Shown: positions 28,317-55,840, counted from the stretch's first letter. The stretch: DNA of 60,467 bases from a virus (IMGVR_UViG_3300045988_040927:1-60467); one strand, 5' to 3'. Translations and numbers: made by a program. The notes: generated by a model from the letters alone, not told the origin.

Positions 28317-28343
28317 CGCAAAAATTACATATCCTCTTATGGA
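28317..28343 (+). promoter_or_regulatory. 27-bp conserved motif, copy 1
   Basis: CGCAAAAATTACATATCCTCTTATGGA. It abuts a terminator T-run and lies 25 nt before ATG 28369. Confidence 0.6.
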
Positions 28344-28368
28344 GATAAAACAAAAGGAGGAGTTTATC

Positions 28369-28518
28369 ATGGGTGTAAAGAAATTCATCAAAACTTTAAT
28401 TACTTTAGACAAATTGAATCAAAAGTTCAATGAAGAACTTAACGAGAACATTAGAATTCTGAAGGCACAAGTTAAAGAAGAAGAGAAGAACCCTAAACGC
28501 TGGAAACCTGAGTCTTAA
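28369..28518 (+). CDS. Small coiled-coil protein
   Basis: 49 aa from ATG 28369, preceded by AAAGGAGGAG. The longer ORF-track start (28261) runs through a terminator and a motif copy. Confidence 0.45.
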   Translation: MGVKKFIKTLITLDKLNQKFNEELNENIRILKAQVKEEEKNPKRWKPES

Positions 28519-28532
28519 TCTCCATAAGAAAA

Positions 28533-28566
28533 GACCCGTCTTTATGACAGGTCCTCTTCTTTTTTT
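28533..28566. terminator. Bidirectional terminator at the convergence of the + and - strand genes
   Basis: GACCCGTC-tttat-GACAGGTC, flanked by an A-rich 5' side and a T-rich 3' side. Confidence 0.6.
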
Positions 28567-28568
28567 CC

Positions 28569-28823
28569 TTATCCTAATTTCTTATCCTCCTTCGTACCAA
28601 TTATCTCTATCCCATATTCTAATCTCTTAGGTAACTTGTGATGTTTTCTTCCCTCATAACCCAAAGCTTCATCAATCGCATTCTTAGCGCATCTATTTGT
28701 TCTGTAAATGTTATTATCTCCAGGTATGCTGATAGACCAACCGTTTTTATAACCCTCGATCCAGTAACCTCTGTACTTAAAATCAGCTCTTGTAACAGCC
28801 GTATCTTTCCATACTATTCTCAT
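28569..28823 (-). CDS. Hypothetical protein (possible lysogeny-expressed cargo gene)
   Basis: 84 aa on the - strand with a GGGAGGAA SD, downstream of the integrase. It is bounded by a bidirectional terminator. Confidence 0.5.
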   Translation of the reverse strand: MRIVWKDTAVTRADFKYRGYWIEGYKNGWSISIPGDNNIYRTNRCAKNAIDEALGYEGRKHHKLPKRLEYGIEIIGTKEDKKLG

Positions 28824-28950
28824 TTCTTATTTCCTCCCAAATGTTGATTTATCAGTGTTTTTAAGCCATCCCAGTTAGGTATATATCAAGAGGGTGTTAT
28901 AAAAATAACGCCATAATGATATACACGCGGGGTAAAAGCTAACCCACACT

Positions 28951-29139
28951 TTATTGGTGTAGGTCTATGTCTAATATAAATTCTACATCATTTTCACGAC
29001 TGAATTCAATTCTACTGATTATTTGCTTGAGGGATTCATTTTTAGTAGCTGCATCTAAGTAATCATCTTGGATCACCATAAGAGCATCTGACACAAGTAT
29101 TAGCTTCTCCTCATATTCTTCTTTTTCTGGAATAGCATA
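28951..29139 (-). pseudogene. Detached C-terminal 62 codons of the serine recombinase, in frame beyond TAA 29140-29142
   Basis: Reading on in the same frame gives YAIPEKEEYEEKLILVSDALMVIQDDYLDAATKNESLKQIISRIEFSRENDVEFILDIDLHQ*. This looks like the usual C-terminal end of Firmicutes large serine recombinases. Confidence 0.55.
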
Positions 29140-30591
29140 TTAGAGGTCTTCTATTTGTTTCTCTAATACTTCTAATCTTTGATTATGGATTGCCTTACGT
29201 TCTACAAATTCGTTATTTGTAATGTCGTCATTTTCCCACGAATCGAATAACTTCGACTTCTTCTTTTCTATCTTACGCTTCTCTTTGACAAGTCTGTCTA
29301 TTTGTTTCTGAATATCGTTCTCGTCTATATCTGGAGAATTTTCTATCTTTACTTCAAAGTCGTCCACATACGTACGCAACGCTTGAGTGACAGCTGCAAT
29401 AACATCCGAGGCGATTGCAGATTTAACTTTACATCCAGTAGTGTTGCTTTTGTGTACGATTCGGTTATTTCTATTTTCTTTATAAGGTTGTAAATGCATT
29501 GACTTGCCACATTTCTTACAGTACACCAAACCTGCAAGAGGGTTTTTAAGCTGCAACCCTGAACGAGTACGATCTTTGTAAAATTTCTTTTGAGCTTCTC
29601 TGAAAGTTTCCTCATCTACAAGAGCATCGTTCATGTGTTTACCATCGTATAGCATATACTGATCTGAATGATATCTTGGACGAGTTATTTTCAGTTCACC
29701 ATTGACCATCGTCTTAATACGCATACGGTTATTCCATCTAACCTTTCCCATATAAACAGGGTTTGTCAAATATGTTTTAACTGAATCTTTAGTCCAATCA
29801 GTATCACCTCTGTAAGTAGGAGCTCCCATAGCTGTTAATCGCTTAGCTATATCGTTAGTTGACAAGTTATCTTTAACTGACCATTCAAATATTTTCTTAA
29901 TGTAAGGAGCCTCAATTTCGTTAGGGACTAGTGTACGCTTTGTCTTAGTCTTTACAATATTGTATCCGTACGGACGATAAGCACCCATGTAATTTCCTTC
30001 GACTACAGCCTGCCTACGACCTCTGTCCATACGTTTGTGGATCATCTTATATTCTCTACGTGACATAAATAGTTCAAATTCCATATATTCTTCGTCTTCT
30101 TGAGAGTGCGCTACATCATATGTTTTGGTTGGAGTTACGACTAATACGCCATTATTCATATTCGAGTATTTAAGACAGTCCATAATTGTTTGGGCATCTC
30201 CTTGATTACCACGAGACAAACGAGTTACTTCAACTATGAGGATACCTTTATATTTTCCTTTGTAGCAATCTTCTAGTAATTTCTGTATCTTAGGTCTGCC
30301 AGCGATTGATTCGCCAGATTCTAACTCGGTGTATATTTCACCAATGTAAAATCCTTTTCTAGCTGCTAACTCTTCTAGCATTTTCCTATGTCTAGCTAGT
30401 GTCTCTCCTTCACCGAGTTTCTCGGCTTCTAAATCAGCTCTGGACTTCCTCAAATAAATCGCATAAACATCCATATCCAAAGCTTTAGATGTTACGTTGT
30501 TCATATCAAATGTTGTCATGGAGTCACTTCCTATATCTATGATGTACTTGCCAAGGGATAAAGTTGGCATCACCTCCTTCGCGTAATTCAC
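29140..30591 (-). CDS. int: Large serine recombinase (integrase), ending at an in-frame TAA
   Basis: Resolvase-type N-terminus (VYAIYLRKSRADLE...), recombinase domain and zinc ribbon (CKKCGKSMH...C), then a coiled coil. The start is ambiguous: GTG 30591, ATG 30570, or ATG 30519 (the last has the best SD spacing). Confidence 0.9.
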   Translation of the reverse strand: MNYAKEVMPTLSLGKYIIDIGSDSMTTFDMNNVTSKALDMDVYAIYLRKSRADLEAEKLGEGETLARHRKMLEELAARKGFYIGEIYTELESGESIAGRPKIQKLLEDCYKGKYKGILIVEVTRLSRGNQGDAQTIMDCLKYSNMNNGVLVVTPTKTYDVAHSQEDEEYMEFELFMSRREYKMIHKRMDRGRRQAVVEGNYMGAYRPYGYNIVKTKTKRTLVPNEIEAPYIKKIFEWSVKDNLSTNDIAKRLTAMGAPTYRGDTDWTKDSVKTYLTNPVYMGKVRWNNRMRIKTMVNGELKITRPRYHSDQYMLYDGKHMNDALVDEETFREAQKKFYKDRTRSGLQLKNPLAGLVYCKKCGKSMHLQPYKENRNNRIVHKSNTTGCKVKSAIASDVIAAVTQALRTYVDDFEVKIENSPDIDENDIQKQIDRLVKEKRKIEKKKSKLFDSWENDDITNNEFVERKAIHNQRLEVLEKQIEDL

Positions 30592-30606
30592 ATTCTCCTT
30601 TATGAA
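30580..30606 (+). promoter_or_regulatory. 27-bp conserved motif, copy 2
   Basis: CGCGTAATTCACATTCTCCTTTATGAA. It overlaps the integrase 5' end on the opposite strand and lies 13 nt before ATG 30620. Confidence 0.55.
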
Positions 30607-30619
30607 AGGAGTGGTTTAT

Positions 30620-30832
30620 ATGTTTGATAAAAAATATAAAAAGACTTTAGAAATACTTGACAGCGAAAATGAAATGTATTATAGGTTGTATCTCAAATAT
30701 TTAGATTTAGCAGATACTTCAAAGGATGAGAAATCAAAAATATGGCATTTGGATAAAGCTAGCGAGTATCGTGAAGTATTTATAGCATTATCAGATTTTA
30801 AAAAAAAACTTTATAAAGAGATGGAGTCCTAA
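30620..30832 (+). CDS. Small hypothetical protein between integrase and repressor
   Basis: 70 aa from ATG 30620, 8 nt after AAAGGAG. A motif copy lies at 30580 and a terminator overlaps the stop. Confidence 0.5.
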   Translation: MFDKKYKKTLEILDSENEMYYRLYLKYLDLADTSKDEKSKIWHLDKASEYREVFIALSDFKKKLYKEMES

Positions 30833-30849
30833 CAAGGGCTCTTTCTTTT
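30824..30849 (+). terminator. Terminator overlapping the stop codon (GAGTCC-TAACAA-GGGCTC module)
   Basis: The hairpin includes the TAA stop; a TTTCTTTT run follows. Confidence 0.6.
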
Positions 30850-31234
30850 ATTTTTGTCTCTGCGAAATTAAGAATCTGCCATACTCCATTAACTTTTCAT
30901 GTTCCTCATCGGTAAAAGGGTCCATGCCAAACGCCTTATGCCAAGCCTCTACATGCCTCACATAAGTCTCGTTTACGGACGAATATACAGCCTCTTCTTC
31001 TCCGTCTGATATTTTTGTAGATAGCATCTCTTTAGTGTTCCATCCCATCAAATGAGCAGGAGTCGTATCTAATGCTTCAGCAAGTGGATTGAGAATACCT
31101 AATGGTAGATTCTCAATATCACCATTCTCATATCTATATATTGTGGTCCTATTCTTACCTAACTTTTCAGCAAGATCATCAATCGACAGACCTCGCTTCG
31201 TTCGTAATAATTTTATTCGTTTTCCTATAGACAT
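30848..31234 (-). CDS. CI-like repressor (XRE-family HTH)
   Basis: KRIKLLRTKRGLSIDDLAEKLGKNRTTIYRYENG is a classic HTH_3 sequence. It is divergent from the early + strand genes. Confidence 0.85.
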   Translation of the reverse strand: MSIGKRIKLLRTKRGLSIDDLAEKLGKNRTTIYRYENGDIENLPLGILNPLAEALDTTPAHLMGWNTKEMLSTKISDGEEEAVYSSVNETYVRHVEAWHKAFGMDPFTDEEHEKLMEYGRFLISQRQK

Positions 31235-31261
31235 TATCTTGTCTCCTTTCTAACAATAATT

Positions 31262-31290
31262 ATCATATACTAATATTTGCACATGTGCAA
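31262..31290 (-). promoter_or_regulatory. Sigma-A-like leftward promoter for the repressor gene
   Basis: On the - strand: TTGCAC, 17 nt, TATGAT. The -35 element lies inside the 16-bp palindrome. Confidence 0.45.
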
Positions 31291-31291
31291 A
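31276..31291. promoter_or_regulatory. Operator-like perfect palindrome TTTGCACATGTGCAAA
   Basis: A perfect 16-bp palindrome. Related half-sites TTGCA/TGCAA recur at 31318-31333 (TTGCATATTATGCGAA) and 31379-31395 (TTGCACGAAACGCAA). Confidence 0.55.
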
Positions 31292-31300
31292 CAAAATGCA

Positions 31301-31342: not shown

Positions 31343-31372
31343 TTGACAGAAAAATTGGAATGGTGTTATCTT
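31343..31372 (+). promoter_or_regulatory. Sigma-A-like rightward early promoter
   Basis: TTGACA (31343-31348), an 18-nt spacer containing TG, then TATCTT (31367-31372). It is upstream of GTG 31405. Confidence 0.55.
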
Positions 31373-31602: not shown

Positions 31603-31731
31603 ATGAAAACATACAGATTTAAAAACGCTATCGTACGTATCCATGGCGAGGTGAATAAGAAACGACTTGAAAAGGCGACTATTAAACTTGTCAAAGGAAC
31701 TATGAAATATAAGAGAGGAGTTAATAAGTAA
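31603..31731 (+). CDS. Small basic protein (42 aa)
   Basis: ATG 31603 follows GAGGTG. The TAATG overlap couples it to the next gene. It is not in the ORF track because it is under 60 aa. Confidence 0.45.
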   Translation: MKTYRFKNAIVRIHGEVNKKRLEKATIKLVKGTMKYKRGVNK

Positions 31732-32144
31732 TGGGTACAGTTATTCGTCCAGAGATTTCAAAGAAGAATAAATATTGGATCGACAAACATAGACACTATG
31801 AACTAAAACATTTCTGCTTACAGTATCCTACATGGAAACGAGTCTATAAGGACAGTCCTAAGATATCATTATCCGTATATGAGGATATTCCTAGCAATAA
31901 TGAGCCTGGAGATCCAACAGCCAGACAAGCAGTTAGACGAGCACAATACTTAGAACGTATCAATTTAATTGAACGTACGGCTAAAGATGCCGACAATGAA
32001 CTACATAATTATATTTTAAAAGCTGTAACAGAAGGTCTATCCTACACACACTTGAAATCGAAGTTTGATATACCATGTGGCAAAGACTTGTATTACGACA
32101 GGTACAGACGATTCTTCTGGTTATTAGATGAATTAAGAGATTGA
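31731..32144 (+). CDS. Putative sigma-like / late transcription regulator (region-4-like C-terminal HTH)
   Basis: 137 aa. Contains YELKHFCLQYPTWK and a C-terminal GLSYTHLKSKFDIPCGKDLYYDRYRRFFWLL, reminiscent of ArpU/RinA/sigma-r4-type phage regulators (from memory). Confidence 0.4.
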   Translation: MGTVIRPEISKKNKYWIDKHRHYELKHFCLQYPTWKRVYKDSPKISLSVYEDIPSNNEPGDPTARQAVRRAQYLERINLIERTAKDADNELHNYILKAVTEGLSYTHLKSKFDIPCGKDLYYDRYRRFFWLLDELRD

Positions 32145-32160: not shown

Positions 32161-32391
32161 ATGATGGTAGGTAAAACTAAAAGAGAGATTAGAAATAAGA
32201 CGAGACTAGCTTATTGCCTAGTTGATATTTTGGAGTATGACATCGACAATCTTAAGAACGAGGCATATGATTGCGATCCAAATATTCTTATGGAAACTGT
32301 TCAAGAGACCAAAACAACACTACAGAATATTGTAGATATTATTACCGAACTGGAATACATCTTATATTTAGAGAAACTTAAGGAGTCCTAA
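32161..32391 (+). CDS. Hypothetical protein
   Basis: 76 aa with an AGGAGGAG SD. The stop is embedded in a terminator hairpin. Confidence 0.5.
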   Translation: MMVGKTKREIRNKTRLAYCLVDILEYDIDNLKNEAYDCDPNILMETVQETKTTLQNIVDIITELEYILYLEKLKES

Positions 32392-32408
32392 CAAGGACTC
32401 TTTTTTTT
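32383..32408 (+). terminator. Terminator overlapping the stop codon (GAGTCC-TAACAA-GGACTC module)
   Basis: Perfect 6-bp stem followed by T8. Confidence 0.7.
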
Positions 32409-32409
32409 G

Positions 32410-32436
32410 CGCGAAATTAACAGGGTGTATTATGGG
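32410..32436 (+). promoter_or_regulatory. 27-bp conserved motif, copy 3
   Basis: CGCGAAATTAACAGGGTGTATTATGGG. It abuts a terminator T-run and lies 33 nt before ATG 32470. Confidence 0.6.
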
Positions 32437-32686: not shown

Positions 32687-32713
32687 CGCAGTATATACAA
32701 CTCCTATTATGAG
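32687..32713 (+). promoter_or_regulatory. 27-bp conserved motif, copy 4
   Basis: CGCAGTATATACAACTCCTATTATGAG, 15 nt before ATG 32729. Confidence 0.55.
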
Positions 32714-32912: not shown

Positions 32913-32949
32913 AGAGCCTGGTTAAACCTGGGCTCTTATCTTTTGTTTT
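32913..32949 (+). terminator. Intrinsic terminator
   Basis: AGAGCC...GGCTCT followed by TATCTTTTGTTTT. Confidence 0.5.
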
Positions 32950-32975
32950 CTACCAAACTTAGAAGGGTGAGACAG

Positions 32976-33728
32976 ATGAACAAAACAATTTACAAAGTTA
33001 AAGGATTTTTGAAACATCAGTCTCCAACGATCTTGACTTGTGTTGGGGCTGCCGGTGTGGTTGTGACTTCAGTGATGACCGCTAAGGCAACTATCAAAGC
33101 AACAAAATTATTAGAAAAAGCTGAGACAGAGAAGGGAGAAAACTTGACGAAGAAGGAGAAATTTAAAGTAGCAGCACCAGCTTATATTCCTACAGTTATT
33201 GTCGGCGTATCCACAATCGCTTGTATCTTTGGGTCTAATGCTCTTAATAAACGTAAGCAGGCGGCCTTAGTCAGCGCTTATAAAGTACTGGACCGATCTT
33301 ATAAAGAATATAGAGAAAAGGTTGAAGAGGTTTACGGCGAAGGTGCTGATAAAGTTATTAGAAAAGAAATTGCCAAAGATAAGTACGAACAGCAGAAACC
33401 AAAAGACACTGGTAAGGAACTGTTCTATGACGATTTCTCTAGACGATATTTTGAGTCAACAAAAGAAGATATTTTGGCTGCTGAGTATGAAATTAACAAA
33501 CGATTAGCGTATCATGGCGGAGCATGTTTGAATGAGTTCTATCAATTGGTTGGCTTAGGTCCGGTTACAGACGGAAAAGAGACTGGATGGAATACGGGAC
33601 AAATGATGGATATGTATTGGGATGCTTGGTTAGAGTTTTATCACGAGGATGTAGAATTACGTGATGGACGTAAATGTACAAATTTATATTTTACTGAACC
33701 AGTATTAGACTTCGAAAATTACTGTTAA
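32976..33728 (+). CDS. Two-TM membrane protein, paralogue 1 of 4 (DUF6353-like family, from memory)
   Basis: ATG 32976; the ORF-track start at 32943 lies inside a terminator. TM hairpin: SPTILTCVGAAGVVVTSVMTAKAT and YIPTVIVGVSTIACIFGSNALNKRKQAAL. C-terminal motif LNEFYQLVGL..G..GW. Confidence 0.7.
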   Translation: MNKTIYKVKGFLKHQSPTILTCVGAAGVVVTSVMTAKATIKATKLLEKAETEKGENLTKKEKFKVAAPAYIPTVIVGVSTIACIFGSNALNKRKQAALVSAYKVLDRSYKEYREKVEEVYGEGADKVIRKEIAKDKYEQQKPKDTGKELFYDDFSRRYFESTKEDILAAEYEINKRLAYHGGACLNEFYQLVGLGPVTDGKETGWNTGQMMDMYWDAWLEFYHEDVELRDGRKCTNLYFTEPVLDFENYC

Positions 33729-33731: not shown

Positions 33732-33758
33732 CGCATAAATAACACGCTCCTTTATGAA
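33732..33758 (+). promoter_or_regulatory. 27-bp conserved motif, copy 5
   Basis: CGCATAAATAACACGCTCCTTTATGAA, 13 nt before ATG 33772. Confidence 0.6.
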
Positions 33759-33939: not shown

Positions 33940-33965
33940 GAGCCTTACATAGGCTCTTTCTTTTT
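33940..33965 (+). terminator. Intrinsic terminator
   Basis: GAGCCT-tacat-AGGCTC followed by TTTCTTTTT. Confidence 0.65.
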
Positions 33966-33970: not shown

Positions 33971-33997
33971 CGCAAAAATAACATAGCACTTTATGAA
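33971..33997 (+). promoter_or_regulatory. 27-bp conserved motif, copy 6
   Basis: CGCAAAAATAACATAGCACTTTATGAA. It follows a terminator and lies 14 nt before ATG 34012. Confidence 0.6.
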
Positions 33998-34011: not shown

Positions 34012-34341
34012 ATGAAAACATTAAGCAAATATGCAAGACTATTTGACAACACAAATGTAAATTGGAATGCCAATGTGTTAGATAGTCGGAGGTTTTTAAA
34101 GTGTGTAGAACGCTATGCTAATGACCTTTTGAAACGCAGAGGAACAATATTTTTAAATGACATTTATGAAATGTTGGGATTCGAAAGAACGCAAACAGGT
34201 CAAGTTGTAGGGTGGCACTATTCTAAAGAAAATCCGATTGGCGATAATATGGTTAAATTTGATTTGCATGGAGGGAAAAAAGGTAGTATTGAAATAGACT
34301 TTAATGTTGATGGAAGCGTCATTAATTATTTAAAGGATTAG
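34012..34341 (+). CDS. Stand-alone copy of the C-terminal domain of the paralogue family (no TM region)
   Basis: FLNDIYEMLGFERTQTGQVVGWHY...IEIDFNVDGSVINYL aligns with the C-terminus of 39828..40835 (FLNEVYEMLGIPATKAGQVVGWIY...ILLDFNVDGYILDKV). Confidence 0.65.
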   Translation: MKTLSKYARLFDNTNVNWNANVLDSRRFLKCVERYANDLLKRRGTIFLNDIYEMLGFERTQTGQVVGWHYSKENPIGDNMVKFDLHGGKKGSIEIDFNVDGSVINYLKD

Positions 34342-34363
34342 CCAGCAATGGCTTTTCCTTTTC
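34340..34363 (+). terminator. Terminator overlapping the stop codon (AGCCA-GCAA-TGGCT module)
   Basis: The TAG stop is part of the 5' context; TTTCCTTTT follows. Confidence 0.6.
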
Positions 34364-34485: not shown

Positions 34486-34746
34486 TTGTCATTATTTACA
34501 TACGTATGCCTTGGTTTATTAATCATCGCATGCCTCGTTATAGCAGTGTTAGCGATTCAGATTTCAATACTTAAGTCACGATTAAGCAAAGATCCAATAG
34601 GTGTGCTTAAAATCGATAGTTCTGACATCGTAGATGGACCTCTATTATTTTTGGAATTGAATCGAGACGTTGACACAGTGAAGCTAATGCACGATAAAGA
34701 AATAATGTTAAAAGTTGATGCCACAGACTTCGTTTCGCACAAATAA
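34486..34746 (+). CDS. Single-pass membrane protein
   Basis: TTG start after AAAGGAGAGTG, with an N-terminal TM helix (VCLGLLIIACLVIAVLAIQISIL). Confidence 0.5.
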   Translation: MSLFTYVCLGLLIIACLVIAVLAIQISILKSRLSKDPIGVLKIDSSDIVDGPLLFLELNRDVDTVKLMHDKEIMLKVDATDFVSHK

Positions 34747-34762
34747 CACTTTCTATTATGGA
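34736..34762 (+). promoter_or_regulatory. 27-bp conserved motif, copy 7
   Basis: CGCACAAATAACACTTTCTATTATGGA. It overlaps the stop of 34486..34746 and lies 41 nt before ATG 34804. Confidence 0.55.
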
Positions 34763-35649: not shown

Positions 35650-35676
35650 CGCAAAATTTACATGTCCCTTTATGAA
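35650..35676 (+). promoter_or_regulatory. 27-bp conserved motif, copy 8
   Basis: CGCAAAATTTACATGTCCCTTTATGAA, 23 nt before ATG 35700. Confidence 0.6.
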
Positions 35677-35931: not shown

Positions 35932-35956
35932 GGGTCAGCAATGACTCTTTCTTTTT
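35932..35956 (+). terminator. Intrinsic terminator
   Basis: GGGTCA-gcaa-TGACTC followed by TTTCTTTTT. Confidence 0.6.
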
Positions 35957-35957: not shown

Positions 35958-35984
35958 CGCAAAATTTACATGTCCTCTAATGAG
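35958..35984 (+). promoter_or_regulatory. 27-bp conserved motif, copy 9
   Basis: CGCAAAATTTACATGTCCTCTAATGAG. It abuts a terminator T-run and lies 23 nt before ATG 36008. Confidence 0.6.
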
Positions 35985-36007: not shown

Positions 36008-36235
36008 ATGATGGATATTTTGAAATTAAAGCTATCTACAAAATTTATGAAAGGAATTGCAGCCAAAGTATTATCAAGAAACATTTACAAAAAGTTAGGA
36101 TACAAGATTGATATTCAGCTTAATGATGTACAGCTTGATGTTATTGACGGTGAAGTAAAATTTCATATTGATGCAGATGGCAAAATGAACAAAACCGAAT
36201 TCAGTAGACTTATGGAAGATATCGGAGAGGATTAG
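36008..36235 (+). CDS. Small hypothetical protein
   Basis: 75 aa with an AAAGGAGGAG SD. A motif copy lies upstream and a terminator overlaps the stop. Confidence 0.5.
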   Translation: MMDILKLKLSTKFMKGIAAKVLSRNIYKKLGYKIDIQLNDVQLDVIDGEVKFHIDADGKMNKTEFSRLMEDIGED

Positions 36236-36257
36236 CCAGCAATGGCTTTTCCTTTTT
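36234..36257 (+). terminator. Terminator overlapping the stop codon (AGCCA-GCAA-TGGCT module, second copy)
   Basis: The same ~29-bp string as at 34334..34362. Confidence 0.6.
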
Positions 36258-36258: not shown

Positions 36259-36285
36259 CGCGAAATTTGCAAATACTATTATGAG
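36259..36285 (+). promoter_or_regulatory. 27-bp conserved motif, copy 10
   Basis: CGCGAAATTTGCAAATACTATTATGAG. It abuts a terminator T-run, with an 88-nt structured leader before ATG 36374. Confidence 0.55.
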
Positions 36286-36373: not shown

Positions 36374-37135
36374 ATGAAAGGAGCAAAAGTACGTTTATAT
36401 TTAAAACGTAATTCACCAACAATAGTGTCTTGTATAGGTGCAGTTGGAGTCGTAGCTACTACTATTGCAGCAATAAAGGCTACACCTAAAGCTTTGTCAC
36501 TGATCGAGGATGAGAAAGCATGTATTAATAAGCAACTCGAACAAGGCGGATGGCAAACTAGAATTGATAAACTGACTACTGCTGAGACTATTAAAGCTAC
36601 TTGGAAATGTTATATTCCAACGGCGGTAATAGGACTTTCCACAATAACCTGTATATTTGGAGCAAATGCACTAAATAAGAATCAACAGGCAGCACTTACA
36701 AGCGCTTATATTCTTTTAGATAATGCCTATAAAGAGTATAAGAGTAAAGTTAGTAGCTTACTCGGTGAGGATGCTAATGTACATATTCAGAAGTCTATAG
36801 TCGAAGATCGGTATGCCGATGCTGATATTTCAGTGTCTGATGAAAACCAATTGTTCTATGAATACAATTATGGAGAATTCTTTGAACGTACAAAAACTCA
36901 AGTATTAAATGCTGAGTATAGCTTCAACCAAAAATTTATATCTGATGGATATGCCACATTAAACGACTTCTATGAATTGCTCGGTTTACCTAAAACACAA
37001 GAAGGCGAAATTATAGGTTGGTCAGTTCAAGAAGGATATTTGTTAGTAGACTTTGAACATGAACTATTAGAGATGGAAGATGGTATGGAATGTACAATTA
37101 TAAATCTACCAGTTGCACCATCTATTGCATATTAA
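36374..37135 (+). CDS. Two-TM membrane protein, paralogue 2 of 4
   Basis: SPTIVSCIGAVGVVATTIAAIKAT, YIPTAVIGLSTITCIFGANALNKNQQAAL and LNDFYELLGLPKTQEGEIIGW are all collinear with 32976..33728. Confidence 0.7.
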   Translation: MKGAKVRLYLKRNSPTIVSCIGAVGVVATTIAAIKATPKALSLIEDEKACINKQLEQGGWQTRIDKLTTAETIKATWKCYIPTAVIGLSTITCIFGANALNKNQQAALTSAYILLDNAYKEYKSKVSSLLGEDANVHIQKSIVEDRYADADISVSDENQLFYEYNYGEFFERTKTQVLNAEYSFNQKFISDGYATLNDFYELLGLPKTQEGEIIGWSVQEGYLLVDFEHELLEMEDGMECTIINLPVAPSIAY

Positions 37136-37138: not shown

Positions 37139-37165
37139 CGCAAAAATTACACGTTGTATTATGGA
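37139..37165 (+). promoter_or_regulatory. 27-bp conserved motif, copy 11
   Basis: CGCAAAAATTACACGTTGTATTATGGA, 16 nt before ATG 37182. Confidence 0.6.
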
Positions 37166-37181: not shown

Positions 37182-37352
37182 ATGAATAATTTAAAAGCAC
37201 TTAAAATCGTTGGAGCAGTATTATCTGTAATCGGTGCTGGTGTATCGCTTGGAATGAGCGCAATCAGCGACAAGAAAACAGATCTTGAGCTTGACGAAAA
37301 GGTGGCACAAAAAGTAGCAGAAGCTATCGCTAAAGCAAGTGAGGAGTCCTAA
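37182..37352 (+). CDS. Small single-pass membrane protein (56 aa)
   Basis: ATG 37182 follows GGAAAGGAGTG. TM helix LKIVGAVLSVIGAGVSLGMSAI. A terminator overlaps the stop. Confidence 0.5.
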   Translation: MNNLKALKIVGAVLSVIGAGVSLGMSAISDKKTDLELDEKVAQKVAEAIAKASEES

Positions 37353-37371
37353 CAAGGGCTCTTCAGTTTTT
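37344..37371 (+). terminator. Terminator overlapping the stop codon (GAGTCC-TAACAA-GGGCTC module, third copy)
   Basis: Hairpin followed by TTCAGTTTTT. Confidence 0.55.
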
Positions 37372-37382: not shown

Positions 37383-37718
37383 ATGGACGAAATAATAATG
37401 AAGATTCAAAAGTATATAGACGAGTCCTTATTTGAACCTCATATAAATTGGCCAAAATACGAATTTCTCAGACGTAGTTATTCACGCTGGGCTGCCAATG
37501 AGATTTTATGTCGTATTTTAAAGGAGTCATTAAAACCACCGCCGTATATTACAGGTTTTGAACCAGAGACTCCATCAGCGATTATCAGAGAGTTTATAGA
37601 CGAAATGGATTACTATTCCGACATAAGCACCGATAATAAAAAACAGCGTATATTCATTATTGCTAAGGAAACAGCAATAGACATTAACACATTTATATTT
37701 GAAAGGAGACTAGCATGA
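37383..37718 (+). CDS. Hypothetical protein
   Basis: 111 aa with a GGGAGGA SD, coupled to the next gene by an ATGA overlap. Confidence 0.5.
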   Translation: MDEIIMKIQKYIDESLFEPHINWPKYEFLRRSYSRWAANEILCRILKESLKPPPYITGFEPETPSAIIREFIDEMDYYSDISTDNKKQRIFIIAKETAIDINTFIFERRLA

Positions 37719-38494
37719 GTAAAGTTAATTTATCTACAATTGCTAAAAATGTTCACGCATCAACTGTAAAACATCAGCCAGAGATTCTTACTGGTATAGG
37801 TATTGCAGGTATGCTTACGACAACAGTCATGGCTGTAACTGCGACACCTAAAGCGTTAGATCTTATGGCGGAGATCAAAGAAAACCATGAGGAGGACACA
37901 GACAAAAAAGCCTATGCTAAAGATATTGTTCTTAGAGTAGCGCCTGTTTATATTCCGGCAGCTATTATTGGCATATTGTCAGCATCCTGTCTAATTGGCG
38001 CTAATTCAGTAAACCTTAAACGTAATGCAGCATTGGCTACAGCATACACTCTTTCTGAGTCAGCATTGAATGACTATCGAGGTAAGGTAATTGAAACGCT
38101 CGGAGAGAAAAAGGATAGAGCAGTAAGAGATGCTATCGCTAAAGATAAGATCGAACAGAATCCGGTTGTAGACAGAGAGGTCATCATTACTAATAATGGT
38201 GAAACTCTTTGCTACGATGTTCTCTCTGGACGATATTTTAAATCTGATATTGAGAAACTTAAGCGGGCTACAAATGAACTTAATCGCAAAATGTTAAGTG
38301 ATAATTATATTTCCCTTAACGAGTTCTATGATGAAATAGGCTTGAACTATACGAAAGTCGGTGAAAATATCGGATGGAATATTAGTCGAGGATATATTGA
38401 ACTCGACTTTAGTTCTCAGTTAACAGCCAAAGGCGAACCATGTTTGGTTATTGATTATCGTGTAGAGCCTCGCTATAACTATGACCGATGCTGA
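37715..38494 (+). CDS. Two-TM membrane protein, paralogue 3 of 4
   Basis: QPEILTGIGIAGMLTTTVMAVTAT, YIPAAIIGILSASCLIGANSVNLKRNAAL and LNEFYDEIGLNYTKVGENIGW. Confidence 0.7.
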   Translation: MSKVNLSTIAKNVHASTVKHQPEILTGIGIAGMLTTTVMAVTATPKALDLMAEIKENHEEDTDKKAYAKDIVLRVAPVYIPAAIIGILSASCLIGANSVNLKRNAALATAYTLSESALNDYRGKVIETLGEKKDRAVRDAIAKDKIEQNPVVDREVIITNNGETLCYDVLSGRYFKSDIEKLKRATNELNRKMLSDNYISLNEFYDEIGLNYTKVGENIGWNISRGYIELDFSSQLTAKGEPCLVIDYRVEPRYNYDRC

Positions 38495-38496: not shown

Positions 38497-38523
38497 CGCG
38501 AAAAATACATATAGTATTATGGT
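38497..38523 (+). promoter_or_regulatory. 27-bp conserved motif, copy 12
   Basis: CGCGAAAAATACATATAGTATTATGGT, 44 nt before ATG 38568. Confidence 0.55.
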
Positions 38524-38813: not shown

Positions 38814-38856
38814 TTTGATTCTAAAGAAATCGAATATTTGACTATGTTCAACAAAA

Positions 38857-38897
38857 GGGAGAGTACCTGTAACAGGGTACTTTCTCTTTTTGCTTTT
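38857..38897 (+). terminator. Intrinsic terminator
   Basis: A long imperfect stem GGGAGAGTACCTG-taa-CAGGGTACTTTCTC followed by TTTTTGCTTTT. Confidence 0.65.
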
Positions 38898-39827: not shown

Positions 39828-40835
39828 ATGAATAAAACTGAAATCATGAACAAAATCACAAGAGCAGCTCATAAGACTGGTTTTGCTCTTAAACAACACA
39901 GTCCTGAAATTCTTGCAGTGACTGGTACAGTAGGCGTTGTAGCAAGCGCAGTATTGGCATGTAAAGCTACAACAAAAGTTAATGGTATTATAGAAGACAC
40001 AAAATCTCAAATCCACGAGCTTCATCTTGTAGCTTCTGCGGCTGGTATTGAAGAAAAGAAAGAAGAATATTCAGCTGAAGACGCTGAAAAGCTCGAAGTA
40101 TTAAAAATGCATACCGTAGTTCAAGGATATACGGCTGAAGATTCTCGTAAAGATTTAACTCTTATTTATGTTCAAACAGGCATTAAATTTATTAAGTTAT
40201 ATGCACCTGCTATCATTCTTGGAGCTGCATCTCTTAGCTGCTTGCTTGCTTCTAATAACATTTTACGTAAGAGAAACGCTGCTCTCGCTGCCGCATACGC
40301 TACAATCGACAAAGGTTTCAAAGAATACAGAAGTCGCGTTGTTGAACGTTTCGGTGAAGAAGTTGATAAAGAACTTAAATACAATGTTAAGGCTCAAGAG
40401 ATTGAGGAGACTGTTATTGACAAAAACGGCAAAGAAAAGACTGTTAAAAAGACAGTAAAGGTTGCAAATCCAAATGAACACAGTGAATACGCTCGTTTCT
40501 TTGACGATGGTTGCACTGGATGGGAAAAGAACTCAGAGTATAATTTAGCTTTTCTTAACTCTCAGCAAAACTATGCAAACGACAAGCTCAGAGCTCAAGG
40601 ATATTTATTCCTCAATGAAGTTTATGAGATGCTCGGTATTCCAGCAACAAAAGCAGGTCAAGTTGTAGGTTGGATTTATAATCCGGATGATCCAAAGAGC
40701 GGCGATAACTATGTTGATTTCGGTATCTATGATATTTATAACGAAAAATGTCGTGACTTTGTAAACGGTTATGAACGTACAATCTTACTTGACTTCAATG
40801 TTGATGGCTATATTCTCGACAAAGTTGCATTCTAA
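39828..40835 (+). CDS. Two-TM membrane protein, paralogue 4 of 4 (longest, with an insertion between the TM helices)
   Basis: SPEILAVTGTVGVVASAVLACKAT, YAPAIILGAASLSCLLASNNILRKRNAAL and LNEVYEMLGIPATKAGQVVGW. Confidence 0.7.
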   Translation: MNKTEIMNKITRAAHKTGFALKQHSPEILAVTGTVGVVASAVLACKATTKVNGIIEDTKSQIHELHLVASAAGIEEKKEEYSAEDAEKLEVLKMHTVVQGYTAEDSRKDLTLIYVQTGIKFIKLYAPAIILGAASLSCLLASNNILRKRNAALAAAYATIDKGFKEYRSRVVERFGEEVDKELKYNVKAQEIEETVIDKNGKEKTVKKTVKVANPNEHSEYARFFDDGCTGWEKNSEYNLAFLNSQQNYANDKLRAQGYLFLNEVYEMLGIPATKAGQVVGWIYNPDDPKSGDNYVDFGIYDIYNEKCRDFVNGYERTILLDFNVDGYILDKVAF

Positions 40836-46585: not shown

Positions 46586-46592
46586 TCGGCTA

Positions 46593-46623
46593 GGGCTCGT
46601 CTACGGACGGGCTCTTTATATTT
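46593..46623 (+). terminator. Intrinsic terminator (34-bp module, copy 1)
   Basis: GGGCTCGTC-tacg-GACGGGCTC followed by TTTATATTT. The string 46590..46623 is identical to 50397..50430. Confidence 0.65.
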
Positions 46624-48930: not shown

Positions 48931-48957
48931 CGCACTAATTACAACTCCTATTATGGA
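48931..48957 (+). promoter_or_regulatory. 27-bp conserved motif, copy 13
   Basis: CGCACTAATTACAACTCCTATTATGGA. A strong hairpin plus T-run follows it before ATG 49054. Confidence 0.55.
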
Positions 48958-48966
48958 AAGGCTGGA

Positions 48967-49010
48967 GGGTCTTGGCTAGAAATAGCTGAGACTCTTTTGC
49001 TTTTATATTT
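48967..49010 (+). terminator. Strong hairpin plus T-run located between motif copy 13 and gene 49054
   Basis: A 12-bp stem GGGTCTTGGCTA-gaaa-TAGCTGAGACTC with a GNRA-like loop, followed by TTTTGCTTTTATATTTT. Confidence 0.65.
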
Positions 49011-49053: not shown

Positions 49054-49419
49054 ATGGAAAGAACCATGAAATTGTACGGAAACAAAGTTTACGGTGAAGA
49101 GGTGTCTAAGTATGGATTAGAGAATGGATATTTGGATTATCTAACTCTATCTAAAATCATTGGACCTTGTATCATGAACAATTATCTTCGTGCAGAGACT
49201 ATGGAAGATTGGGAAATTGTGGCTGGTGATTTAGATCATGATATTTATCAGGATTACATTATCTCAGAGTATGGATATGAGTTCTTAGTAGAGTTTACAG
49301 ATGAGCTAGTATTCTATAACGATAAACTAAATATTTATATTTGGGGTGTTTCTCATTTTGGAACTAGCTGGGATTATGTACTGACTAATATCAGATTAGA
49401 AGGAGTTGACCAAGATTGA
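49054..49419 (+). CDS. Hypothetical protein
   Basis: 121 aa with an AGGAGTG SD. A motif copy plus a strong hairpin precede it. Confidence 0.55.
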   Translation: MERTMKLYGNKVYGEEVSKYGLENGYLDYLTLSKIIGPCIMNNYLRAETMEDWEIVAGDLDHDIYQDYIISEYGYEFLVEFTDELVFYNDKLNIYIWGVSHFGTSWDYVLTNIRLEGVDQD

Positions 49420-50384: not shown

Positions 50385-50399
50385 ATTTAAGTCAATCTA

Positions 50400-50433
50400 G
50401 GGCTCGTCTACGGACGGGCTCTTTATATTTTTT
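50400..50433 (+). terminator. Intrinsic terminator (34-bp module, copy 2)
   Basis: The same hairpin as at 46593, followed by TTTATATTTTTTT. Confidence 0.65.
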
Positions 50434-51331: not shown

Positions 51332-51709
51332 ATGGCATTAGCTAAAAAATGTGATCGATGCGGTAAATTGTATGAGCACTATTATGACTTTAATTCATGC
51401 ATGGTAATTGTTGCTGATAAATATGGACACATTGGTGCTACATCAAAAAAGAATGACCTATGTCCTGATTGCATGCAGGCACTTACTGATTTTATGGAAG
51501 CGCCGCAGAGAGAAATAAATGATTCAAAAGAATCTTTAACACCCGACATAGGCATTGCTGGTATGATTACAACCACACTTGTTACTGGAACAATTGGTCA
51601 GGTTCTTGATGAATGTACACTTGACGGACATGCGAGAAAATTGTTAGACGAGCTTTATCAAACGGCATTGAATGACATGCAGGAGGCAAATTATGAAAAA
51701 ACGAATTAA
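51332..51709 (+). CDS. Zinc-ribbon protein
   Basis: Contains CDRCGKLY...CPDC. AAAGGAG SD. Confidence 0.5.
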   Translation: MALAKKCDRCGKLYEHYYDFNSCMVIVADKYGHIGATSKKNDLCPDCMQALTDFMEAPQREINDSKESLTPDIGIAGMITTTLVTGTIGQVLDECTLDGHARKLLDELYQTALNDMQEANYEKTN

Positions 51710-51938
51710 AAATTTGATCAACCGTTATTTTAATAAATTGCCAACGCCGGCAGCTAGATGCTGGTGTATAGGTAGTGATATTTGTGTTATTGACACATAT
51801 AGACTTTCTGCTTCTGGTTATCCTTATGAGACATTTTACGATAAGGATACTGGTATATGTTATATTGCTATCGGTAATGGAGTAACACCACTATACAATA
51901 AAGACGGAACCTTGAAGATTCATAAGGAGAGTAAATAA
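51693..51938 (+). CDS. Hypothetical protein
   Basis: ATG 51693 follows AGGAGG (81 aa). Confidence 0.5.
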   Translation: MKKRIKNLINRYFNKLPTPAARCWCIGSDICVIDTYRLSASGYPYETFYDKDTGICYIAIGNGVTPLYNKDGTLKIHKESK

Positions 51939-51940
51939 CT

Positions 51941-52642
51941 ATGGATATGTTAGATTGGGCTAAAAACGAAGTAAAAATTGCATGTGAAAAAGAACATCCG
52001 GGTCTTAAAAAAGGAGAATGGGATTACGGTTGTGCTTGTTATCAGAGTGCATTAAAAGCTTATAAAAGTTTGGACGAAGACGGTCATTCAGGATTTAGTT
52101 GGGCTATGACTGGATATATTTTAAAGAGGCTTATGGATAATAAACCTTTAACACCTATCGAAGATACTGATGACATTTGGAAGGATATGTATAAACAGCG
52201 ATATGCTAATCATACTGTGATGCAATGCCTTAGAATGCCATCATTATTTAAGTATATTTATGATGATGGTAGAATCGAATATTACGATAACGATCAATTC
52301 ATTGGCATTGATATTCATAGTGGCATTTCATACTCATTAGGCCTTATTAGAGATGTTATGCAAAAAGAATTTCCTATAACTTTTCCTTATATGCCAGGAA
52401 ATACCATTAAAGTATATTGTGAGGATTTTCTTGCAGAACCTGGGAACGGTGACTTTGATACTGTTGGAATTATGTATTATCAAACAGATGATGGTATAAA
52501 AGATGTCAAAAGATATTTTAAAGGCCTTTCTAATAATACACGGCACCTTTCTGATAATGGTTGGAGAGAAATCAGTTTTAGCGAATATATGAATAGAAAG
52601 GAAATGGCTGATAAGTTAAAGGAGAGTAAGGATGAACAATAA
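51941..52642 (+). CDS. Hypothetical protein
   Basis: 233 aa with an AAGGAGAG SD. Confidence 0.55.
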   Translation: MDMLDWAKNEVKIACEKEHPGLKKGEWDYGCACYQSALKAYKSLDEDGHSGFSWAMTGYILKRLMDNKPLTPIEDTDDIWKDMYKQRYANHTVMQCLRMPSLFKYIYDDGRIEYYDNDQFIGIDIHSGISYSLGLIRDVMQKEFPITFPYMPGNTIKVYCEDFLAEPGNGDFDTVGIMYYQTDDGIKDVKRYFKGLSNNTRHLSDNGWREISFSEYMNRKEMADKLKESKDEQ

Positions 52643-52877: not shown

Positions 52878-53034
52878 AGTATATTATGATGATGGAGACT
52901 ATTGTGGTATTTCTAAGGTTTATGCTATTGATACTACAAGATATCGTTTTCTTGTATGCAGCTCATACGATGGTAGATTTCTATGGGTTGACATAAAAGA
53001 CTGCATACTTGAAAAGGAGAACAAAGATGATTAA
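52864..53034 (+). CDS. Hypothetical protein (56 aa)
   Basis: ATG 52864 follows AAAGGAG. Confidence 0.45.
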   Translation: MLDFKVYYDDGDYCGISKVYAIDTTRYRFLVCSSYDGRFLWVDIKDCILEKENKDD

Positions 53035-53740: not shown

Positions 53741-53919
53741 GACAAATGAATAGCTTCTCATACACCTCGACCAACACACCAAAAATTCCATTACGATGCA
53801 AGATTAAACATCAGTTTATATTTAAGCCTGCAAACGAACATTGTGAATGGGGATTGGAGTATCCTCACGAGATATCTCTATGCTTCGCTTGCCCGCATTT
53901 TATTAAGGAGGGATTTTAA
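53737..53919 (+). CDS. Small Cys-rich protein
   Basis: 60 aa with an ATGA overlap with the upstream gene. Confidence 0.45.
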   Translation: MRQMNSFSYTSTNTPKIPLRCKIKHQFIFKPANEHCEWGLEYPHEISLCFACPHFIKEGF

Positions 53920-53989
53920 TGGAATGTGTTTGATATTTTTGTACGTCTATAAACCAACATACATATGTAATTGATGAAAGGAAACAATT

Positions 53990-54751
53990 ATGAAATTTAA
54001 TGAATGGGTAAAAACCTACAACGGAAAGAAAACAGACTTTGACGGAGCTTATGGTGTACAGTGTGTAGACCTTGCAAACTGCTTCATCAACAAATGCCTT
54101 GGACTTAAGATTGGCTTCTGGCCTAAATATGCTAAACAGTTCTGGACTGAGAGAAACAGCAGTGCTTGGCTTAAAAAGAACTTTGACTTCGTAACATGCC
54201 ACTATAAAGACGGTGAACTTAAGGCCGGCGATATCGGTGTGAGAACCTCTGGAACAGCTGGCCATATTTTCATCGTAGCTGAACCTACCAAGGGCGGTAA
54301 GATCAAATACTATGATCAGAACGCTGGCGGTAACGGTGAAGGCATGACTCTCAGAACTAAGCAATATTCTCAGTTTGTAATTACTGGCGTACTGAGGCCA
54401 AAGGATCGTAAGAACCTTCCGTCAGATACTAAGAAGACTGAGACAAAGAAGTCAGACAGCTCAAAGAAGACCGAAACCAAAAAGACCTCCACATACAAAG
54501 TTGGTGGCACTTATACTTTGCTCTTTGACGTTAAAGTACGTAAAGGTGCCGGTACTAACTTCGGTCAAAAGCTTCGTCCACAGCTCACTGCTAACGGTAA
54601 AAAGAATGCCAAAGCTGGTCTTTATGCTGTTCTTAAGAAGGGTACAAAGGTTACAGCAGTCTCTGTAAAGAAAAAAACAGACGAGATTTGGCTTGAAATT
54701 CCGTCCGGTTGGGTATGTGCTGTCTTGAAAAAAAAGACATTTATTAAGTAA
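53990..54751 (+). CDS. Endolysin: N-terminal CHAP peptidase/amidase + K/T-rich linker + C-terminal SH3b binding domain
   Basis: CHAP catalytic context: FDGAYGVQCVDLAN (Cys) and GTAGHIFIV (His). The C-terminal YKVGGTYTLLFDVKVRKGAG...WLEIPSGWV is SH3b-like. Confidence 0.85.
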   Translation: MKFNEWVKTYNGKKTDFDGAYGVQCVDLANCFINKCLGLKIGFWPKYAKQFWTERNSSAWLKKNFDFVTCHYKDGELKAGDIGVRTSGTAGHIFIVAEPTKGGKIKYYDQNAGGNGEGMTLRTKQYSQFVITGVLRPKDRKNLPSDTKKTETKKSDSSKKTETKKTSTYKVGGTYTLLFDVKVRKGAGTNFGQKLRPQLTANGKKNAKAGLYAVLKKGTKVTAVSVKKKTDEIWLEIPSGWVCAVLKKKTFIK

Positions 54752-54922
54752 TTTTGGCAATTCTGTGCCCACTTTTGGGTTTAAAAATCCGGGCTTTGCC
54801 CACTTTTAATTTGGCCACGACTATTTGGTAATGATATTTTGCTGACAAAAATGGCCATTTGCCCACTTTCTGCCCAAGTTTGAGAGATAAAAGTGGGCTT
54901 GAAACGGTCCTAATTTGGCCTG

Positions 54923-54987
54923 ATTTATACAATATCTTGTATATTTTGGGCTAAAATTGGGCTATTTATACAATATCTTGTATATTT
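54923..54987. repeat. Two 24-bp direct repeats ATTTATACAATATCTTGTATATTT (54923-54946 and 54964-54987)
   Basis: Exact copies 41 bp apart. Each contains the inverted repeat TATACAA-TATC-TTGTATA. Confidence 0.85.
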
Positions 54988-55039
54988 GAGTGCTCTCTGC
55001 CCACTTGCCCACTTTTTTTCTTTAATTCTTTAAAAAATA

Positions 55040-55069
55040 ATAAATTATAGTAAATATACTATAATTTAT
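55040..55069. repeat. AT-rich palindrome with 13-bp arms
   Basis: ATAAATTATAGTA-aata-TACTATAATTTAT. Confidence 0.8.
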
Positions 55070-55147
55070 AAAAATAAAAGAATAGGGCCGATAAAAGTGG
55101 GCTTTTGGCCACAAGCATATTCTTGACTAAGAAAGGAGTAAAAGCTT

Positions 55148-55552
55148 ATGGAAGTTATGGACGAACGTCTGTATACGAACTTTAAACAATATTTTCCCTT
55201 GTTTGCAGAAGATGCTGTTAGTTTCACTACAAGTAATATTCCATGCGAGTTGATAGTAAAGTTGACGGACGGTAGTTTTATATTGTATGACGATGTTGAC
55301 CGAACAATTAGAAATCTTCCAGATGATCCACACGAATTATCTAAAGAAGAATGTACTAAAGAGTTTAGTTATCGTCTAAGAAAAATGATGCAAATCAAAG
55401 GCGTTACACAGCAAGAGCTATCTAAACGAACAGGAATAGCTCAATCAAATATTAGCTGTTATGTAAGAGGTACTAATAGTCCATCTTTTTATGTCATTGA
55501 TAAAATTGCAAAAGCACTAGACTGTTCAATAGATCAGTTTAGATATTATTAA
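55148..55552 (+). CDS. XRE-family HTH protein with an extra N-terminal domain
   Basis: RLRKMMQIKGVTQQELSKRTGIAQSNISCYVRG. It lies immediately downstream of the iteron-rich region. Confidence 0.7.
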   Translation: MEVMDERLYTNFKQYFPLFAEDAVSFTTSNIPCELIVKLTDGSFILYDDVDRTIRNLPDDPHELSKEECTKEFSYRLRKMMQIKGVTQQELSKRTGIAQSNISCYVRGTNSPSFYVIDKIAKALDCSIDQFRYY

Positions 55553-55568
55553 AAAGGAGTAATCACAA

Positions 55569-55793
55569 ATGACACATATGCGTATAGTTAACTTTGATCG
55601 TACAGCACGTATCGAACAATTAAAAGCATGTGCTGAAACTATTATTAAAAATGCTGAGAGCATTATTGGTGATGAACATTATGCAGGAGATATGTCAGTA
55701 TCAATTATTTTAAAAGCTGATGCGTTTCCAAGCATAAAAGTTGATAAAGATATCTATCCGGATAGACTTGAAGAAATTTGTAGCATCAAGTAA
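55569..55793 (+). CDS. Hypothetical protein
   Basis: 74 aa with an AAAGGAG SD. Confidence 0.5.
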   Translation: MTHMRIVNFDRTARIEQLKACAETIIKNAESIIGDEHYAGDMSVSIILKADAFPSIKVDKDIYPDRLEEICSIK

Positions 55794-55813
55794 CAATCTC
55801 TATTTTTTAGCTT

Positions 55814-55840
55814 CGCGAAAAAAACATGCCCTTTTATGGA
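55814..55840 (+). promoter_or_regulatory. 27-bp conserved motif, copy 14 (upstream of the nuclease-RNA polymerase operon)
   Basis: CGCGAAAAAAACATGCCCTTTTATGGA. A 129-nt leader with two hairpin/T-run elements separates it from ATG 55970. Confidence 0.55.

Follow-up and report, generated by a model that had tools for sequence, protein, structure and literature searches.

A repeated 27-bp motif in an Oengusvirus-like phage genome is a candidate promoter for a single-chain two-barrel RNA polymerase

INTRODUCTION

Which RNA polymerase, if any, reads a 27-bp motif that recurs 14 times in a single orientation between the genes of a temperate phage? The question is raised by IMGVR_UViG_3300045988_040927 (positions 1 to 60467), a viral DNA of 60,467 nt that we call the window; motif positions are numbered 1 to 27. 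We argue below that the copies are probably promoters for the phage's own RNA polymerase, a single-chain, two-barrel enzyme of 924 amino acids (aa) encoded on the + strand at 56803 to 59577.

The family to which this polymerase belongs is widespread. A database search returned at least 8000 homologs from gut and environmental metagenomes, and the family is also found in whole actinophage clusters and in Lactococcus dairy phages. An HHpred assignment of the family has been published, as has the grouping of Faecalibacterium phage FP_oengus, actinophage clusters, and Lactococcus phage 1706 that share it (bioRxiv 10.1101/842583). The searchable literature on phage 1706, FP_oengus, the actinophage clusters, and two-barrel polymerases in general describes no promoter for this family and no demonstrated activity.

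RESULTS

The initial annotation had reported 14 + strand copies of the motif, all of which were recovered. With at most one mismatch allowed, the pattern CGCRNWWWWNRCA-N7-TWATGR matches the window at exactly these 14 places and nowhere on the − strand, against a chance expectation of 0.11 copies and a maximum of 1 in 100 dinucleotide shuffles. A position weight matrix scores the 14 sites at 34 to 43 bits, while the next + strand site scores −1 and the top − strand site 5.7; this gap indicates that no weak copies are hidden and that the set is closed and strictly oriented. The motif has no dyad symmetry.

All copies are intergenic or overlap a stop codon, and none is found in the structural genes (1 to 28316) or in the replication block (38.6 to 48.9 kb), as had been proposed. 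Copy 1 (28317 to 28343) is downstream of the lysis genes and precedes a small gene that starts at 28369, and copy 2 (30580 to 30606) separates the recombinase and repressor genes, with a Shine-Dalgarno (SD) sequence from motif position 27 and a start codon at 30620. The SD also begins at position 27 in copies 4 (32687 to 32713; start codon, 32729), 5 (33732 to 33758; start codon, 33772), and 6 (33971 to 33997) and at position 28 in copy 11 (37139 to 37165; start codon, 37182). In these five copies the start codon falls 13 to 16 nt past the end of the motif (motif positions 41 to 44), in agreement with the initial annotation. The initial annotation had put six copies directly next to a terminator T-run. 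Copies 3 (32410 to 32436), 6, 9 (35958 to 35984), and 10 (36259 to 36285) begin 7 to 15 nt past the stem of a predicted terminator (32380 to 32403, 33940 to 33956, 35932 to 35947, and 36234 to 36247, respectively), at the end of its T-run, and T-runs also precede copies 1 and 14. A gene of the DUF6353 family lies downstream of copy 10, copy 7 (34736 to 34762) overlaps the stop codon of the gene at 34486 to 34746, and copy 8 occupies 35650 to 35676. Copy 12 (38497 to 38523) is the last ahead of the motif-free, 10-kb replication block, from which it is separated by a terminator at 38853 to 38890. Copy 13 (48931 to 48957) is followed by a strong 15-bp hairpin and T-run (48964 to 48997) ahead of a gene at 49054. 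Copy 14 (55814 to 55840) is the promoter candidate of the operon that encodes an endonuclease, an exonuclease, and the polymerase. Each downstream gene has an SD and start codon of its own, and the distance from the start of the motif to the start codon ranges from 41 to 151 nt.

We compared the motif among relatives, from which 325 nonredundant sites yield the profile T-rich / CGC R AAA WWW ACA NN YYCTW TTATG RRR. T22 occurs in 84% of these sites and TATG is invariant or nearly so, with A23, T24, and G25, which were fixed by the search pattern, invariant in all genomes scanned. FP_oengus, whose genome is 50% G+C and whose polymerase is 51% identical to that of the window, has 13 co-oriented copies of the form CGCGAAAAAWNCA-N7-TTTATGRR in equivalent places, namely in early gaps and, in one case, ahead of the polymerase operon. 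Two phages of Actinobacteria with polymerases about 50% identical retain CGC-N8-CA-N10-ATG: Arthrobacter phage Mudcat as CGCGTAAATTACA-NGGGC-TATAATGAG and Streptomyces phage RosaAsantewaa as CGCAAGATYTACA-N-TTAAATGAGACCCC, a variant of which precedes its nuclease-polymerase operon. The most distant polymerase considered, that of Lactococcus phage 1706 (38% identical), is accompanied by a diverged form that lacks the ATG, CRCATGTTTTACA-TAYRC-TATAGTAG. The 1706 polymerase gene itself has no motif ahead of it; the 450-bp gap before that gene (51634 to 52081) holds three copies of CTATCACGAAAAAACTTCGGGAAAACTTCGGGATTG.

Association between motif and polymerase was found in both search directions. 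In 80 IMG/VR loci fetched with the polymerase protein there are 86 + strand copies versus 6 on the − strand, and about 70 of the 80 keep the equivalent of copy 14 about 950 bp upstream of the polymerase gene. Conversely, 72 of 80 viral loci found by the motif alone encode homologs of window phage proteins, and the copies within each such locus are almost always co-oriented. The motif is also present in lytic relatives that encode neither repressor nor integrase. The human-gut phage scaffold MT835495 has the polymerase cassette of the window and a late module in common with it (83% identity in TerL), while its early and replication genes are unrelated. It carries only two copies of the motif, both ahead of the polymerase cassette and one of them followed by tRNA-Met (1391 to 1466), and no other repeat family was found in its nonhomologous part. 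Taken together, these comparisons indicate that the motif travels with the polymerase gene, in a common orientation, across phages of Firmicutes and Actinobacteria. Since it accompanies the gene in phages of such different bacteria, we consider the polymerase its most plausible reader.

Over its full length the 924-aa protein belongs to phrog_4291, an "RdRP-like" family, and its SGADFDGDT loop (aa 519 to 527) is invariant. It also has two N-terminal helix-turn-helix (HTH)-like motifs and a C-terminal one (aa 883 to 920) that scores as sigma-70 region 4. An AlphaFold model, of low to moderate confidence (mean predicted local distance difference test [pLDDT] score, 62), gave QDE-1 as its top Foldseek match in PDB (E = 3.9e-4), albeit with low TM-scores from this low-confidence model, followed by the large subunits of Pol IV, RDR2, African swine fever virus, Pol II, vaccinia (poxvirus), and Escherichia coli (beta′). 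The DxDGD loop, the modeled fold matches, the phrog_4291 membership, and the published HHpred assignment together place the protein in the two-barrel (double-psi beta-barrel) RNA polymerase superfamily. It had been called YonO-like in the initial annotation, which correctly placed a motif copy ahead of its operon and suggested that related phages be searched for the motif alongside YonO-like genes. The co-occurrence is borne out for this polymerase; the label is not, since the protein has no detectable similarity to SPbeta YonO (BLASTP E = 4.9) and thus falls outside the YonO family. No second DxDGD protein was found in the window, and so we rejected a second, virion-borne polymerase, for instance one of the P23-45 type, in which the enzyme and the tape measure protein are fused.

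The polymerase gene has constant neighbors. Endonuclease (109 aa) and exonuclease (185 aa) genes precede it (55946 to 56798, + strand), in operon with it in all relatives, and a gene for an 81-aa protein of phrog_4303 (59585 to 59830, + strand), a possible cofactor, follows it in every relative. Domain and phrog comparisons revealed no recognizable DNA-binding domain in the 81-aa protein. Among proteins common to all motif-bearing genomes, this leaves the polymerase, which has three HTH motifs, as the DNA-reading candidate, with the adjacent 81-aa protein as a possible second. A sigma-A promoter directly before the polymerase ATG (TTGACA at 56758) was considered and rejected; the hexamer is accounted for by codons for a conserved F-D-K, and relatives do not keep the −10 part.

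A 137-aa "sigma-like" protein (31731 to 32144, + strand) had been named as the other candidate reader. It belongs to phrog_11237, a family of unknown function, and has no Pfam match and no sigma or DNA-binding domain. Homologs were found only in temperate Firmicute relatives, in many of which the gene adjoins the first motif copies, and none was detected in the motif-bearing phages Mudcat and RosaAsantewaa (tblastn, E ≤ 1e-3). The missing domain and the missing actinophage homologs exclude this protein as a general reader.

Features that overlap the 3′ end of the motif limit where transcription could begin. The SD core begins at positions 25 to 29 in 77 of the 325 sites (24%), which extends to the relatives the earlier argument that any start must lie inside the motif or at its edge. 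In FP_oengus a tRNA-like gene (2910 to 3006 of the locus examined; odd ARAGORN anticodon call) begins at position 26 of a motif copy. A transcript that carries these features whole must therefore begin no later than position 25, which puts the predicted start within the conserved 3′ box. The base at position 25 is G, replaced by A in the actinophage variants, and three purines come after it. The polymerase-operon copy adds a further clue: at 55838 to 55871 (+ strand), fold prediction gives a leader hairpin and T-run whose 5′ arm begins at motif position 25. A hairpin and T-run follow this copy in 53 diverse relatives, with the position kept and the stem sequences differing, and position 25 is the most frequent start of the 5′ arm (a plurality of the 53) even when the fold includes upstream DNA. 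This geometry is what a 5′-terminal stem-loop would look like and supports a start at position 25; the hairpin could be a 5′ stabilizer, an attenuator, or a block to host read-through. The hairpin after copy 13 (48964 to 48997) is a similar promoter-proximal, terminator-like element. We also examined a hairpin centered on the ATG, pairing positions 14 to 22 with 26 to 34 (anti-SD with SD), which is convincing in single copies and was rejected because the 325 sites show no covariation beyond base composition.

This start-site bound conflicts with a promoter of the sigma-A type. The sole −10-like register of the motif is positions 19 to 24, where TANNNT (A2 and T6) occurs in 48 to 50% of sites, with no −35 element 16 to 18 nt upstream. 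A −10 element there predicts a start at positions 30 to 32, which is beyond the start of the SD in 24% of the 325 sites. Taking TATGRR as the hexamer instead gives a distance of 17 nt from TTCGCR, rather than the 14 to 16 nt of the initial annotation, and leaves out the essential T at the last position. Because the limit at position 25 clashes with a start at 30 to 32, and because the A is missing in half of the sites, the motif does not appear to be of the sigma-A type. The window does contain a promoter-like site of that class, TTGACA-18-TATCTT with a TG (31343 to 31372, + strand), which had been pointed out as a contrast to the motif and which faces a cro-like gene; the 137-aa gene is the second gene after it.

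The first and last 55 bp of the window (1 to 55 and 60413 to 60467) are identical, which marks the window as the circular assembly of an entire phage genome, about 60.4 kb long. Its order of genes and the similarity of its proteins fit FP_oengus and, more distantly, the actinophage clusters and Lactococcus phage 1706, and by these features the window phage is an Oengusvirus-like temperate phage, complete and circularly assembled. The structural and lysis operon spans 28 kb. It is followed by the lysogeny genes, a serine recombinase (29140 to 30591) and a cI-type HTH repressor (30848 to 31234) (together 29140 to 31234, − strand), then by an array of small genes and DUF6353 paralogs and by the replication block, which encodes a 1,367-aa polymerase/primase and a helicase. 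A GC-rich noncoding gap (59831 to 60229) of the form GGGGGGTCTCC...CACCCCC...GGCGGCCC separates the polymerase module from the first late gene, which starts at 60230 and wraps to 134. The gap is probably cos, as it occupies the place of the genome ends in relatives. No Rfam family matched within the window, and no near-identical DNA match to the early region was found among GenBank phages.

Two kinds of repeats accompany the motif-bearing units. Four DUF6353 paralogs and one C-terminal fragment, most of them behind motif copies, lie at 32943 to 33728, 34012 to 34341, 36374 to 37135, 37715 to 38494, and 39828 to 40835, and the family is kept in FP_oengus, Mudcat, RosaAsantewaa, and 1706. Terminator-like hairpins form small repeat families, one at 30823 to 30842, 32380 to 32403, and 37340 to 37365, another at 34340 to 34353 and 36234 to 36247, and a third at 46592 to 46615 and 50399 to 50422, with the sequences GGAGTCCTAACAAGGRCTC, AGCCAGCAATGGCT, and AGGGCTCGTCTACGGACGGGCTCT. 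Such families suggest that promoter-gene-terminator cassettes have been duplicated or exchanged.

DISCUSSION

We propose that the 14 copies are promoters for the phage's own two-barrel RNA polymerase, a reading that we regard as probable. The HTH domains fused to the polymerase would read CGC (positions 1 to 3) and WACA (10 to 13) as duplex DNA, the AT-rich TWTTAT (19 to 24) would melt, and transcription would start at purine 25, within T(−3)A(−2)T(−1)G(+1), and continue into the purine run. Twelve copies would drive small-gene units after the lysogeny module, copy 48931 would restart transcription, and copy 55814 would drive the polymerase operon. During lysogeny the sigma-A promoter at 31343 would be kept shut by the cI-type repressor, and lack of the phage polymerase would keep the 14 motif promoters off. 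Once the polymerase is present, copy 55814 would provide positive feedback, and on a circular or concatemeric genome transcription of the polymerase operon would run through cos and on into the late operon, 28 kb long and free of the motif. Expression of the small-gene units, of the replication block, and of what may be an excision function at 30620 would come from the remaining copies. Among the ideas put forward in the initial annotation, a phage-specific, non-sigma-A promoter read by the HTH-bearing polymerase is thus the one best supported by the comparative evidence.

Several points weigh against this proposal. The polymerase operon is itself behind a motif copy, and we found neither a conserved sigma-A promoter nor a virion polymerase that would supply the first polymerase molecules. 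Half of the sites have a decent TATTAT or TATAAT at positions 19 to 24 behind a T-rich region, so that the host polymerase might initiate there weakly. Intrinsic terminators of the bacterial type, such as that at 38853 to 38890, flank the units, and the phage enzyme may or may not respond to them. The structural assignment draws on a model of low confidence (mean pLDDT, 62) with low TM-scores. Finally, co-occurrence across genomes would look no different if the reader were the 81-aa protein, whose gene is always next to that of the polymerase.

The host's own polymerase could account for some of these observations. The copies might be host promoters of an unusual sigma-A class, with TWTTAT at 19 to 24 as the −10 element and the T-rich upstream sequence (positions −11 to 0) resembling an UP element, while the phage polymerase answers to a different signal, perhaps a late promoter; SPbeta YonO, whose transcription is confined to late genes, is a parallel (PMC5467207). 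Such promoters would solve the bootstrap problem of the polymerase operon and would fit the bacterial-type terminators that end the units, and the TANNNT found in about half of the sites becomes a perfect TATAAT in Mudcat. We nonetheless think this explanation unlikely. The essential A(−11) is absent from half of the sites and from almost every FP_oengus copy, no −35 element is found at the right distance, and a start at 30 to 32 would cut the SD in 5 of the 14 window copies and truncate the FP_oengus tRNA-like gene. Moreover, CGC, ACA, and G25 have no sigma-A role and yet are kept between phages of Clostridia and Actinobacteria, and fourteen constitutive host promoters would, we infer, be hard to silence in a prophage with an ordinary cI/cro switch. 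A variant in which a small phage factor redirects the host polymerase, as T4 MotA/AsiA and SPO1 gp28 do, seems to us quite improbable. Candidates for this factor are the 81-aa protein and, among temperate members, the 137-aa protein; the former is present in every motif-bearing relative, the gene for the latter follows soon after the sigma-A promoter and adjoins the first motif copies in many Firmicute relatives, and CGC would lie about 28 to 30 nt upstream of the start predicted from a −10 element at 19 to 24, a geometry like that of the MotA box. The start-site conflict applies here as well, however. For the 137-aa protein, neither a sigma or DNA-binding domain nor a homolog in Mudcat or RosaAsantewaa was detected, and the 81-aa protein lacks a recognizable DNA-binding domain and is encoded behind a motif copy, which poses an equal bootstrap problem.

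The motif might instead be no promoter at all, being either an operator for a DNA-binding protein (SPBRE/MrpR-like, or a stoperator) or a translation signal such as a start-associated sequence, an upstream open reading frame (uORF), or a leaderless AUG. SPBRE offers a parallel, since it too recurs between the genes of a large temperate phage (PMC10516654), copies of the motif stand shortly upstream of start codons, and the ATG is invariant and, as the initial annotation noted in raising the leaderless and uORF alternatives, shares the reading frame of the next gene in 4 of the 14 copies. That count holds, but the rate equals chance, and each gene has its own SD and ATG. The 41 to 151 nt that separate motif start and start codon, together with the copy that precedes the tRNA-like gene of FP_oengus, also set the motif apart from the start-associated sequences of Cluster K and EF actinophages, and the 1706 variant has no ATG. 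As for an operator, the SPBRE core AAAAATATGTATA is unrelated, the motif occurs in one orientation without dyad symmetry, and it is found in lytic relatives without a repressor or integrase. Several copies abut terminators, so that a promoter is needed right there, and a fixed hairpin around the ATG is contradicted by the lack of covariation. We therefore consider a nonpromoter role very remote and return to promoters read by the phage polymerase as the explanation that we favor.

If this explanation is right, a defined 27-bp candidate promoter with three invariant boxes would make the enzyme testable in vitro, and culturable systems exist in FP_oengus with Faecalibacterium prausnitzii and in Mudcat with Arthrobacter. 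The motif would let transcription units be annotated in thousands of phage genomes, might provide a compact orthogonal expression system for Gram-positive bacteria, and is relevant to the way in which minimal two-barrel polymerases locate promoters when no sigma factor is involved.

Comparison with known phage polymerases places the motif among several promoter types. T7-type promoters are contiguous blocks of about 23 to 27 bp with a part recognized as duplex, an AT-rich melting part, and the first transcribed purines. The motif has the same block layout and, like them, many intergenic occurrences in one orientation, and the 1706 variant CTATAG-TAGAAAG resembles T7 CTATAGGGAGA. The folds are unrelated (right-hand, Pol I-like versus two-barrel), and the resemblance is therefore functional only. 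A closer parallel in the 3′ box is offered by the phiKZ non-virion polymerase, another noncanonical two-barrel phage enzyme, whose late promoters need all four bases of T(−3)ATG(+1) (PMC7598289). T22-A23-T24-G25 of the motif are these same four bases, and a start at G, predicted here, fits the bound at position 25, the purine at that position, and the purine run. In contrast, phiKZ promoters have no conserved upstream boxes, whereas the motif has invariant CGC and ACA boxes 22 to 24 and 12 to 14 nt upstream, and the phiKZ enzyme is multisubunit, whereas that of the window is a single chain with fused HTH domains. The late promoters of the AR9 non-virion polymerase, A(−11)ACA-N6-U-A/G(+1), share with the motif an (A)ACA box at a fixed short distance upstream of a purine start (PMC7598289). 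The spacing differs, with ACA 7 nt from the start in AR9 and 11 nt from the proposed start here, so that the AR9-type AACA at −11 to −8 is absent from the motif, and AR9 also needs template-strand uracil and a separate specificity subunit (PMC7598289).

YonO of SPbeta, like the window enzyme, is a single-chain two-barrel polymerase of a temperate Firmicute phage encoded just upstream of the late operon (PMC5467207). The two proteins share no detectable sequence similarity, their upstream boxes differ, and YonO has one mapped start and a single late operon (PMC5467207). Within the segment bracketed by the published P_YonO primer-extension primers, TCATTTATGAGGG occurs some 108 nt away from the reverse primer, and it recurs 157 nt upstream of that; this element resembles the 3′ box of the polymerase-operon copies studied here, TTATGAGGG, and is conserved in YonO relatives of at least 83% identity. 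The published P_YonO start (2225998) could not be placed on it. The two copies, as TCATTTATGARGG, are in the SPbeta yonN-yonK gap on the − strand (15444 and 15601 of the 40 kb examined), within or adjoining the primer-bracketed segment, and are the sole matches in those 40 kb. A CGC-N6-ACA-N6-TTATG match just after yonN was rejected as P_YonO, as it is upstream of the published forward primer and so is not the mapped start. From these analogies we raise, tentatively and with more doubt than conviction, the idea that a single polypeptide might read its own promoter without a sigma-like partner, the fused HTHs taking CGC and ACA and the core preferring TATG(+1), and that this initiator, common to the phiKZ non-virion polymerase, the present family, and, to judge by TCATTTATGAGGG, YonO, might be an ancient two-barrel property. 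On this idea the motif would also provide a first way into the YonO promoter, a question that the 2017 work did not settle.

The P23-45 study (PMC10770324) offers a precedent for how such promoters come to notice. It describes gp96 and gp64 as single-chain two-barrel polymerases, each with its own motif, one AT-rich and one GC-rich, and there as here the promoters are recognized as conserved motifs limited to relatives that encode the enzyme. The cases differ in that start sites and chromatin immunoprecipitation occupancy were measured for P23-45, one of whose enzymes is virion-borne and whose motifs are unlike ours, while the present system is known from sequence; and the window enzyme has fused HTHs, a term ("helix-turn-helix") that does not occur in the text of that study. 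Across these comparisons, the best-supported reading of the motif is that in function it is a class of promoters for a phage polymerase, comparable to those of T7, N4, phiKZ, AR9, and P23-45.

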